Assembly: GCA_963745025.1 (NCBI GenBank)
Contig: CAVUWD010000005.1
Location: 160,001-224,000 of the forward strand
Direction: 5' to 3'
Source of the DNA: an uncultured delta proteobacterium
Lineage (GTDB): Bacteria > Desulfobacterota > Binatia > JACPRU01
DNA length: 64,000 nt
The notes under the pieces are model-generated. The model made no database searches. It was not told the DNA's origin and saw nothing but the letters and a program-made list of their open reading frames with translations. The stretch's first letter is position 1. Each line of letters begins with the position of its first letter. Positions 12,601 through 44,293 of this stretch are shown here, piece by piece. Made by a program: the position numbers and the translations under genes.

Positions 12601-13158
12601 ATGAGCCACGTCGGAGACCAAGTCCAATTCAGCCGCGATTGCGAGGTCGTGCAGATTCCCGCCGGTCACCGTCTCACGCTGCCGCGCGGCACGGAAGCCA
12701 TCCTCACGCAGTCCCTCGGCGGCACCTTCACGCTGCAGGTGCCCAAGCTCGGCGCGCTGGTTCGCCTTTCCGGTAGCGACGCGGACGCGATCGGCCTCGA
12801 GGCGGGCGTTCTGCCGCAGTCGGGCGTTCTGAGCGCCGCGGCCGGCGATCTCGAGCATGAAGTGTGGGAGATGCTGAAGACCTGCTACGATCCCGAGATC
12901 CCGGTCAACATCGTCGATCTCGGTCTCGTCTACGACCTGCGGGTCTCGTCGACGCCGAGCGGTCAGAGCGAGGTGGAGGTGAAGATGACCCTCACCGCGC
13001 AGGGTTGCGGCATGGGCGCCACGATCGCTGCCGATGCGCAGCAAAAGATCGAGATGCTGTCGGGAGTCGAAGAGGCGCGAGTCGAGATCGTCTGGGACCC
13101 GCCGTGGAGCCCGCAGATGATCTCGCGCGAGGGACGCGAGAAGCTGGGAATCGATTAG
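12601..13158 (+). CDS. sufT: Putative Fe-S cluster assembly protein SufT (DUF59)
   Basis: LTQSLGGTFT, YDPEIPVNIVDLGLVY, MTLTAQGCGMG and VWDPPWS; GAGGAG RBS. Confidence 0.88.
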   Translation: MSHVGDQVQFSRDCEVVQIPAGHRLTLPRGTEAILTQSLGGTFTLQVPKLGALVRLSGSDADAIGLEAGVLPQSGVLSAAAGDLEHEVWEMLKTCYDPEIPVNIVDLGLVYDLRVSSTPSGQSEVEVKMTLTAQGCGMGATIAADAQQKIEMLSGVEEARVEIVWDPPWSPQMISREGREKLGID

Positions 13159-13160
13159 GG

Positions 13161-13225
13161 GGCTGCAGGCTTCGGGCTGCGGGAAGGACACCGCCGCGCT
13201 CTCCCGGAGCTCGTAGCCGGCAGCC
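13161..13225. repeat. Heptamer-armed REP-like palindrome, copy 2
   Basis: GGCTGCAGGCTTCGGGCTGC...GGAGCTCGTAGCCGGCAGCC. Confidence 0.65.
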
Positions 13226-13524
13226 GGCATGTGACCCGCACCCGATCAGTTTTCGCACGACGCTCGAGGAGACGGACGCGGTCGGTTGTGGTCGGCCCGT
13301 ACTCGGGTCGATCACAATCGACCGCAACCGCGCGGAGCGCGGAAGACAATAACCCTCGACACGGTGCTGTCCTTAGGACAGCACCCTCGACACTGGTCTA
13401 TTGTCTTCCGCGCTTGCGCGCGGTGGCTGGATTTTCCGGTCGACCCGAATCCGGGCCGACGGGAAAATCCAGCGCTTCCGGATCGCGAGCGCCGGAGGCG
13501 AAGACTGAGGGCATCACAGCCGGC
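13223..13524. repeat. Multi-hairpin structured element, copy A (candidate ncRNA or MITE)
   Basis: Three long hairpins (13278-13325, 13327-13424, 13426-13473) inside imperfect terminal inverted repeats; homologous to 44097-44279. Confidence 0.8.
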
Positions 13525-13527
13525 AGC

Positions 13528-13962
13528 CTAATTCGTTTGTATCTCCACCAGCCGTCCGTCCTCGAACGTGAGCGTGCCGAGAATCGAGAGCTGGCCGTTG
13601 TAGACCCAGGTCTCGCGGCGCTGTCCGCTGTCGGTCGTGCGAGTCTCGCGTCGTTCCGGCGACCCAGCCGCTTCGAGAGTCTCTTGGTCCGACATGCCGA
13701 GACGAAGGCCGTTCAGCCGGCGTGTTTGTGCTTCGTCCTGGCCAATCAGGTCGAACACGGTCGACTTGAAATCCTGCGCCGCTTGGACGCGGGGATCGGG
13801 CCGCGGCTCGCAGCCGATCGCTGCGAGCGTGACGAGCGTCAGAAGCGTCGCTTGGAGCCGCGTAATGGATTCTCCCGGTGGGGGGCGACGAAGTCGAACC
13901 AAGATGCTCCGCACCTCTGCAGCGTGCGCGGGCAAGTTAGCCGCTGAACCTCCGGCGCGCAA
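13528..13962 (-). CDS. Hypothetical lipoprotein (SmpA/BamE-like C-terminal pattern)
   Basis: Lipobox-like LVTLAAIGC, then LRLGMS..E..G.P, ETWVY and LTFEDGRLV. Start uncertain. Confidence 0.6.
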   Translation of the reverse strand: MRAGGSAANLPAHAAEVRSILVRLRRPPPGESITRLQATLLTLVTLAAIGCEPRPDPRVQAAQDFKSTVFDLIGQDEAQTRRLNGLRLGMSDQETLEAAGSPERRETRTTDSGQRRETWVYNGQLSILGTLTFEDGRLVEIQTN

Positions 13963-25671: not shown

Positions 25672-25725
25672 CGGCTACCGGCTGCCGGCTACCGCACGAG
25701 AGACCTTGATATTCTTGCCGGCGGC
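25672..25725. repeat. Heptamer-armed REP-like palindrome, copy 4 (degenerate right arm)
   Basis: CGGCTACCGGCTGCCGGCTACCG...TTCTTGCCGGCGGCC. Confidence 0.6.
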
Positions 25726-44024: not shown

Positions 44025-44096
44025 CGTCGCGGGGGTCGTGGGTCATCGTGGCGATCGCCGCCGCGGTGGAAGGGGGCGTTGCCCCTCTAGTAAGGC

Positions 44097-44279
44097 CTCA
44101 GTTTTTGCCTCGAATACTTGTGGAGGACAACCGCGCGGAGCGCGGCAGGCAGTAACCCGCGAGTTGGTGCATTGCCTTCCGCGCTTGCGCGCGGTGGCTG
44201 GATTCTCCGGTTGACCCGAGTACGGGCCGACCGGAGAATCCAGCGCTTCGGAATCTCGAGCGCTCGAGGCAACACTGAG
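44097..44279. repeat. Multi-hairpin structured element, copy B
   Basis: Terminal inverted repeats CTCAGTTTTTGCCTCGA / TCGAGGCAACACTGAG; hairpins 44130-44195 and 44197-44244 are homologous to copy A. Confidence 0.8.
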
Positions 44280-44293
44280 CGGATACCCAGCGC

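Follow-up and report, generated by a model that had tools for sequence, protein, structure and literature searches.

We analysed a window of 64,000 nucleotides, that is, the whole stretch of DNA to which all positions below refer, together with the genome that contains it (G000), a 5.65-Mb draft in 20 contigs that is 92.65% complete and 7.6% contaminated. The locus under study lies between a sufT-like gene and a convergent gene, and consists of a hairpin built of heptamers and a structured element of 288 bp, hereafter copy A. The features of this locus and two related features elsewhere in the window are as follows, with the strand where one is assigned.

12601..13158, plus strand: sufT-like gene from the list of open reading frames (ORFs), 185 aa, with a TAG stop codon at 13156-13158 (Pfam FeS_assembly_P, E 1.8e-15)
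13161..13225: hairpin built of heptamers immediately 3' of sufT, defined by folding; one of a genome-wide family
13222..13229: left copy of the target-site duplication, AGCCGGCA, in the last heptamer units of the right arm and abutting the end of the element; 8/8 identical to 13518-13525
13230..13517: copy A, in all likelihood a 288-bp non-autonomous MITE of the IS66 family (subfamily 1), delimited by the alignment of copies, related loci and breakpoints of public contigs
13231..13255, plus strand: left terminal repeat of copy A in its diverged form, GTGACCC...GATCAGTTTTCG, from the alignment of 8 copies and by-eye comparison with the repeat of the insertion sequence (IS)
13278..13325: hairpin H1, 48 nt with a 22-bp stem, from folding; kept in 45 copies with compensatory pairs
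13328..13423: long central hairpin of copy A, including a 31-nt insert at 13352-13382
13426..13473: hairpin H3, 48 nt, with a core corresponding to that of H1 in inverted form, from folding and covariation in 45 copies
13497..13517, minus strand: right terminal inverted repeat of copy A (reverse complement GTGATGCCCTCAGTCTTCGCC), matching the repeat family GTAAKGCCTCAGTCTYCG of the MITEs and the resident IS
13518..13525: right copy of the target-site duplication, AGCCGGCA; the homology of the element-free allele restarts at 13518
13528..13962, minus strand: convergent downstream gene, 144 aa, DUF2845; the heptamer array reaches with its last base into the stop codon of this gene
25673..25693: solitary heptamer array GGCTACC GGCTGCC GGCTACC directly 3' of a stop codon, containing the third AGCCGGCAGCC match
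44090..44286: copy B, 197 bp, an older relative without H1 (left repeat GTAAGGCCTCAGTTTTTGCC); its flanks agree at 3/8 positions and no heptamers lie nearby

The hairpin at 13161-13225 begins three bases past the stop codon of the sufT-like gene and contains about three imperfect heptamers per arm, of the GGCTRCC type on the left and of the GGYAGCC type on the right. Its MFE was -43.1 kcal/mol when folded as RNA (shuffle z -2.95) and -23.5 when folded as DNA (z -2.57). The only ORFs listed in copy A are frame-shadow ORFs that extend into the adjoining DNA.

The 11-bp sequence AGCCGGCAGCC occurs exactly at 13215-13225 and 13518-13528 on the plus strand and at 25680-25690 on the minus strand. 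These three matches compare with 0.06 expected in the window, and none of the shuffles attained three (0/100). The first-pass annotation had described this sequence as directly flanking copy A, with its left occurrence in the right arm of the heptamer palindrome and without matching flanks at copy B; all of these observations were confirmed, and the left occurrence forms the 3' end of the hairpin. The left 11-bp copy stands 4 bases away from the left end of the element, and the functional direct repeat is the 8-bp sequence AGCCGGCA (13222-13229 and 13518-13525), which abuts the element ends TGTGACCC...GGGCATCAC (13230-13517). The target is an array with a period of 7, which lengthens the 8-bp duplication to the 11-bp repeat and puts this out of register by 4 bases.

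An allele without the element, the search for which in relatives had been proposed, was found downstream of sufT in a contig of the public run X1 and in two related genomes (G001 and G002). The X1 contig, of 2698 nt, matches the window at 12895-13159 (7 differences) and again at 13518-13950 (23 differences), its flanks being approximately 95% identical to the window. Between 13159 and 13518 it carries 52 other letters and nothing aligns over 13160-13517, so that it defines the right junction only; there, homology restarts at 13518, the first base after copy A. Since this contig is without the element and similarity is back at 13518, a close relative lacks the element. In G001, which belongs to the same genus, identity to the window is 84-86% for sufT and the downstream gene, and the spacer contains no copy of the element; in G002, of the same family, the spacer between the two genes is 66 bp long and the element is absent. 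Both of these spacers are too diverged for base-exact comparison. The target duplication and the element-free allele bear out the proposal that the element was inserted in the right arm of the heptamer hairpin. In keeping with the left boundary, public contigs from other copies break off at 13229/13230, and other copies without the extra G in the right repeat of copy A drop out of the alignment at 13510. Further contigs break at 13277, the point at H1 where the subfamily-2 copies join, and at 13362 (copies without the 31-nt insert). In the runs X2, X5 and X7 no contig spanned the site, a result that is neutral as to the element-free allele.

The G001 spacer (contig C9, locus L002) was observed to hold a different palindromic stretch of approximately 170 bp with inverted ends GGAGTGGGCGCCACGGAT... 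/ ...ATCCGTGGCGCACACTCC and CTAG flanking both sides; this stretch may be another small mobile element.

Copy A belongs to a dispersed family. A search of the genome using an nhmmer profile of 8 full-length copies (blastn was also used) yielded 190 matches, which merged into 87 related loci of 34-345 bp each, found in both orientations and mostly in intergenic DNA. The 8 full-length copies are 94-98% identical in pairs (gap columns ignored); their similarity ends at TGTGACCC... and ...GGCATCAC, and the flanks beyond are unrelated. The larger group of copies, subfamily 2, is approximately 250 bp long and has clear terminal inverted repeats, GTAA(C/T)GCCTCAGTCTTCGCC...GGCSAAGACTGAGGCATTAC, the consensus of which is evident in 15 aligned copies. 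In the alignment, the right repeat of copy A is good and its left repeat diverged. With at most one mismatch, the repeat 17-mer occurs 28 times in the genome, compared with 0 for the reversed control, and of 73 repeat-like sites with no more than 3 mismatches, 53 fall at the 87 loci. The 31-nt insert at 13352-13382 was present only in copy A and in a left-truncated copy (C16:85416-85690) that is 97% identical to it. This insert comprises a perfect mini-hairpin of 20 nt (7-bp stem) and an 11-base duplication of ACCCTCGACAC, and has the appearance of either a template-switch event or a secondary insertion of small size.

We compared exactly 8 flanking bases on each side at the 18 of 87 loci where both repeat-like ends were located automatically (at most 5 mismatches in 18). 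The flanks agreed at 8/8 positions in 7 loci, 7/8 in 3, 6/8 in 2 and 1 to 5 of 8 in the remaining 6; an identity of at least 7/8 was therefore found at 10 of the 18 loci, compared with 0% in a permuted null in which flanks were swapped between loci. Copy A failed the automatic repeat test, the left end of subfamily 1 being diverged, and was judged from the alignment instead. In subfamily 1, the flanks agree at 8/8 positions in copy A (AGCCGGCA) and at C11:346657 (GCGCCGCG), and at 7/8 in each of C10:163437 and C13:321962; the 8/8 agreement at C2:195181 was seen only by eye, with mutated element ends allowed for. The duplications share no consensus (AAGAGGAG, GCTGCTTG, CTTCTCGA, GGCGCTCG, CTCCCGCC, GATCGTCC, AGGCGGGC and GCGCCGCG). 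Terminal inverted repeats, a fixed 8-bp target-site duplication, small size, multiple copies, presence/absence polymorphism and the lack of a transposase gene, which together characterize a MITE, were all found in this family.

Copy A folds into a closing stem formed by both ends, the two 48-nt hairpins H1 and H3 and the long central hairpin, with an MFE of -196.8 kcal/mol for 288 nt. The stems of H1 and H3 are kept by double changes in 45 aligned copies with few non-canonical cells, these copies being related by descent and not representing 45 independent events. For example, pair 53-92 is UA in 36 copies, GC in 6 and CG in 2, and pair 173-206 is UA in 28 and CG in 11. The compensatory changes and the very low folding energy would also suit a family of structured non-coding RNA genes that are not mobile, with the flanking repeat as a coincidence of the heptamer array. 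We regard this explanation as very improbable: the 87 dispersed loci are accompanied by 8-bp duplications of unrelated sequence, and the existence of an element-free allele and the occurrence of both orientations are contrary to an immobile RNA gene. Moreover, the element matches no Rfam family; there were 0 matches at the gathering score in the window, and at E values up to 1 only far-sub-threshold matches appeared (the best with 24 bits, compared with a gathering score of 99). Mobility and a role at the RNA level are not mutually exclusive, and the internal hairpins, conserved by compensatory change, may have a role in transposition or as terminator or REP-like RNA structures.

A putative parent of the family resides in the same genome. 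This IS, of 1882 bp, is present in 3 copies (C6:484414-486295, C6:486304-488185 and C19:80230-82111) with at most one base difference, and has a perfect 19-bp terminal repeat (GTAAGGCCTCAGTCTCCGT) and 8-bp duplications (AACGATCG and CTTCTGGA). It encodes a 468-aa ORF with DDE_Tnp_IS66 (E 6e-38) and zf-IS66, preceded by a 105-aa ORF that falls narrowly below the DUF6788 cut-off (27.0 compared with 27.2 bits); the PF03050 matches in the genome consist of the 3 IS copies and one fragment. The repeat of the MITE matches that of the resident IS at 17 of 20 bases and differs at 3 of 20 positions. The two have only the terminal repeat of approximately 19 bp in common, and their interiors are unrelated. 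As would be expected of an IS66 derivative, the ends of the MITE are like those of an IS66-family IS, and the 8-bp duplication is found in both the MITEs and the resident IS.

At C6:484414-488185, two IS copies were observed head to tail, 8 bp apart and one base different. The 8 bases between them recur directly after the second copy, and a different 8 bases precede the first.

The resident IS was found because a variant end in another genome of the same class, G026, pointed back to G000. With at most one mismatch, the repeat 17-mer was absent from 7 other genomes of the order, and among 301 genomes of the class it was prominent only in G026, with 7 matches at approximately 120-135 bases from contig ends. 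Ten more contig ends of G026 carry the variant GTAAGGCCTCAGTCTCCG, and both sets are the two ends of one repeated element. The same IS thus appears at 17 contig ends in G026, and one of its ends, GTAATGCCTCAGTCTTCG, is identical to the MITE repeat (18/18). All 17 occurrences lie 117-140 bases from a contig end; it follows that the assembly lacks the interior of the IS and that at least 7-10 copies of the IS are present. Within G000, no pairs of the MITE 17-mer 0.7-3 kb apart were found at up to 3 mismatches. A 19-mer scan of a genome contig collection gave 10 loci, namely the 7 G026 contig ends and 3 chance matches (low-GC or unrelated DNA), and the same scan of a metagenome contig collection gave 5 loci, none with a transposase-bearing copy. 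The metagenome locus L040 may be a related MITE.

Other parents were considered and rejected. IS1, which we take to resemble the MITE in its ends and to make a 9-bp duplication, was discarded; PF03400 has no match in G000, and the duplication of the MITE is 8 bp. The case for IS4 rested on ends that we likewise presumed to be similar to those of the MITE, and it was set aside once the IS66 parent was found. As for other ISs of the DDE_Tnp_1 or IS256 type, there are six PF01609 matches and two PF00872 matches in G000, and the ends of four PF01609 loci (two on C8 and one each on C12 and C17) are unrelated to those of the MITE.

The element had previously been likened to IS110-family elements such as IS621. 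According to such an explanation, copy A would be the cargo or an end of an IS110-family element of the bridge-RNA type, brought to the heptamer repeat by RNA-guided, site-specific recombination. Indeed, the genome has IS110-family transposase genes (7 matches, 5 of them above the Pfam cut-off), and the available parts of three reports document elements of this family as REP targeters (PMC1525189, PMC11208158, PMC11187229). However, the analogy fails on the anatomy of the element, the terminal inverted repeats and 8-bp duplications of which match a resident IS66-family IS. No recombinase gene adjoins any copy examined, three nearly identical IS110-type copies in the genome have unrelated flanks without heptamer arrays or MITE sequence, and the insertion sites of the MITE copies differ among themselves, in contrast to the site-specificity of IS110. 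The arrangement typical of an IS110 or bridge-RNA element, that is, an adjoining DEDD recombinase gene or donor ends, no inverted repeats and one target, was not observed at these loci, and we consider this origin extremely improbable. Its inverted repeats, together with duplications of the staggered-cut type, give the element the anatomy of a DDE transposon.

We conclude that copy A is very likely a non-autonomous MITE, the ends of which are recognized by the DDE transposase of the resident IS66-family, single-transposase (ISBst12-like) IS; mobilization of the MITE by this particular transposase is what we infer from the sequences. An IS66-type transposase supplied in trans would act on the ends of copy A, and a cut with an 8-base stagger would be made in the last heptamer units of the right arm of the pre-existing hairpin behind sufT. 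Gap repair would then duplicate AGCCGGCA, and the periodicity of the target would make the duplication read as an 11-base repeat out of register by 4 bases. The site would have been hit mostly by chance or insertion tolerance, and not through recognition of the heptamers. The insertion of a small non-coding transposon copy into a repeat hairpin behind a gene is an ordinary event, and no general principle is altered by this finding.

The resident IS resembles the ISBst12 group and ISDge4 in its combination of DDE_Tnp_IS66 with zf-IS66, its repeats of the form GTAA/GTGA...CTCAG and its 8-bp duplications (PMC12898284). In the part of that report available, ISDge4 of Deinococcus geothermalis is described with repeats GTGACTACTCAGCA/GTAACTGCTCAGCA, an 8-bp direct repeat and a single transposase of 449 aa, compared with 468 aa in the resident IS, both having one large ORF (PMC12898284). 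Repeats of 8 bp are also described for IS66 elements of Paracoccus, in the accessible portion of PMC3281130. However, copy A differs from the ISBst12 group in that it is non-coding and has only the terminal repeat of approximately 19 bp in common with the IS, and the parent differs in its extra 105-aa upstream ORF.

As a short (<300 bp), non-coding, multi-copy and self-complementary sequence with inverted repeats and target duplications, copy A resembles known bacterial MITEs (Correia/NEMIS, ERIC, RUP, Chunjie and MITEPsy1), and it conforms to the MITE concept in that its repeats match those of a resident IS that presumably mobilizes it in trans (PMC3189936, PMC10969869; parts of both). It differs from those MITEs in its interior, which is not a deleted IS but consists of three REP-like hairpin modules with covariation. 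An IS66-family origin of a MITE was not found in a limited literature search, and a 2024 review does not mention IS66. For annotation, the 87 structured repeats would best be described as probable IS66-derived MITEs, and not as RNA genes or IS110 targets. With its resident IS, the family would provide a clean pair of MITE and parent for the poorly studied single-ORF branch of IS66.

The hairpin into which copy A was inserted also belongs to a family. In G000, the GGYAGCC unit in at least 2 tandem units occurs at 88 exact sites, and paired heptamer hairpins number 76, compared with a single one for the reversed control pattern. There are 102 exact double units in G000 and 13 in G001, with background counts in 39 other relatives. 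The heptamer hairpins, with (GGCTRCC)n ... (GGYAGCC)n arms, are thus a genus-limited, REP-like family. They lie mostly directly 3' of stop codons, and divergent spacers contain fewer of them (14 of 249 arrays). They may have arisen by slippage or through a mobilizing enzyme. Like REP/BIME sequences and REPINs, they are short GC-rich palindromes that stand right after stop codons, in many copies and in one lineage; unlike these, their arms are tandem 7-base units of variable number, and the two Y1 (RAYT-like) transposase genes of the genome (C13:188500-188823 and C11:419866-420189) are not flanked by heptamer hairpins. In the 700 bases on either side of the Y1 genes there were no heptamer arrays, with one isolated GGCAGCC unit near each, and no RAYT link of the hairpins was seen.

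It had been suggested that the large element may target the small repeat family, and that the flanks of all copies could be tested for enrichment of GGYAGCC heptamers. We counted a locus as inside a hairpin if, no more than 150 bp away, it had a (GGCTRCC)n array on its upstream side and a (GGYAGCC)n array on its downstream side; this rule replaced the removal of nhmmer intervals (1 match), those intervals being shorter than the elements. By this strict rule, 4 of the 87 loci are inside a hairpin, compared with 0.54, 0.78 and 1.04 expected for 872, 600 and 450 kb of intergenic DNA (P 0.002, 0.008 and 0.02, respectively). Because the final coding fraction of 0.84, after 0.72 and 0.81 with earlier gene callers, was still low, the expected counts were calculated for assumed sizes of the intergenic DNA as well. 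By eye, 6 of the 87 loci lie in heptamer hairpins, some with duplications visible inside the hairpin: in the loop at C11:541060, C19:275191, C8:197644 and C16:1135640, and in the right arm at copy A and C8:227807. In addition, 6 of the 87 loci have an array no more than 100 bp away, compared with 1.4 expected from random non-coding points (P 0.002).

The heptamer hairpins were thus hit more often than a uniform model predicts (4/87 compared with 0.5-1.0), which argues against pure chance. Such an excess would be expected if the transposition machinery had a real but partial preference for the loop or 3' arm of heptamer hairpins, as in the insertion of IS1397 and ISRm22 into REPs but weakly; we hold this to be possible, though on the unlikely side. 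However, 81 of the 87 loci have no association with heptamers, and the lack of a consensus among the duplications argues against heptamer targeting. No heptamers are seen in the 40-65 bases that flank the IS itself, at its 3 copies in G000 or at its 17 ends in G026, and 16 sites from which the element was removed in silico were not more hairpin-prone than random intergenic sequence (mean -15.1 compared with -15.9 kcal/mol, P 0.72). Moreover, the intergenic mask is crude and too large at this coding fraction and takes no account of selection or of the insertion tolerance of 3' spacers, and the excess largely vanishes if only a third of the intergenic DNA tolerates insertions.

In the survey of Tobes and Pareja, as far as the available part of it goes, accepted REP-targeting ISs have 45-100% of their copies in REPs, whereas IS1 in Shigella, which is not counted as a targeter, has 6 of 101 (PMC1525189). 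The MITEs resemble REP-targeting ISs (IS1397/ISKpn1, IS621, ISPpu9/10 and ISRm22) in that some copies occupy a REP-like palindrome located behind a gene, in either its loop or an arm. They differ in that the share is 5-7% (4/87 or 6/87) instead of the large share of copies in REP-like palindromes seen in those ISs, in the absence of a target consensus, and in the family concerned, IS66 as opposed to IS3, IS110, IS4, IS256 and IS5 (PMC1525189, in part). Of the suggested targeting, therefore, the enrichment itself stood, weakly (P 0.002-0.02), while a specificity comparable to that of REP-targeting ISs did not. The excess is weak and probably a tolerance effect. That an IS66-family transposase, via the MITE, structurally prefers the loop and 3' arm of lineage-specific tandem-heptamer hairpins appears distinctly unlikely. 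If this were true, IS66 would be a sixth IS family among the known REP targeters, and two selfish repeat families of one genus would interact, with the hairpins as safe landing pads. For target choice, a small testable lead is offered by the 4- to 8-fold excess in heptamer hairpins.

Finally, in the sediment metagenomes X1 and X5, the summed contig depth over the hairpins at 13222-13529 was 30-50x the depth over the single-copy genes on either side. The family is thus an abundant one in these communities, the depths being sums over organisms and not a copy number.
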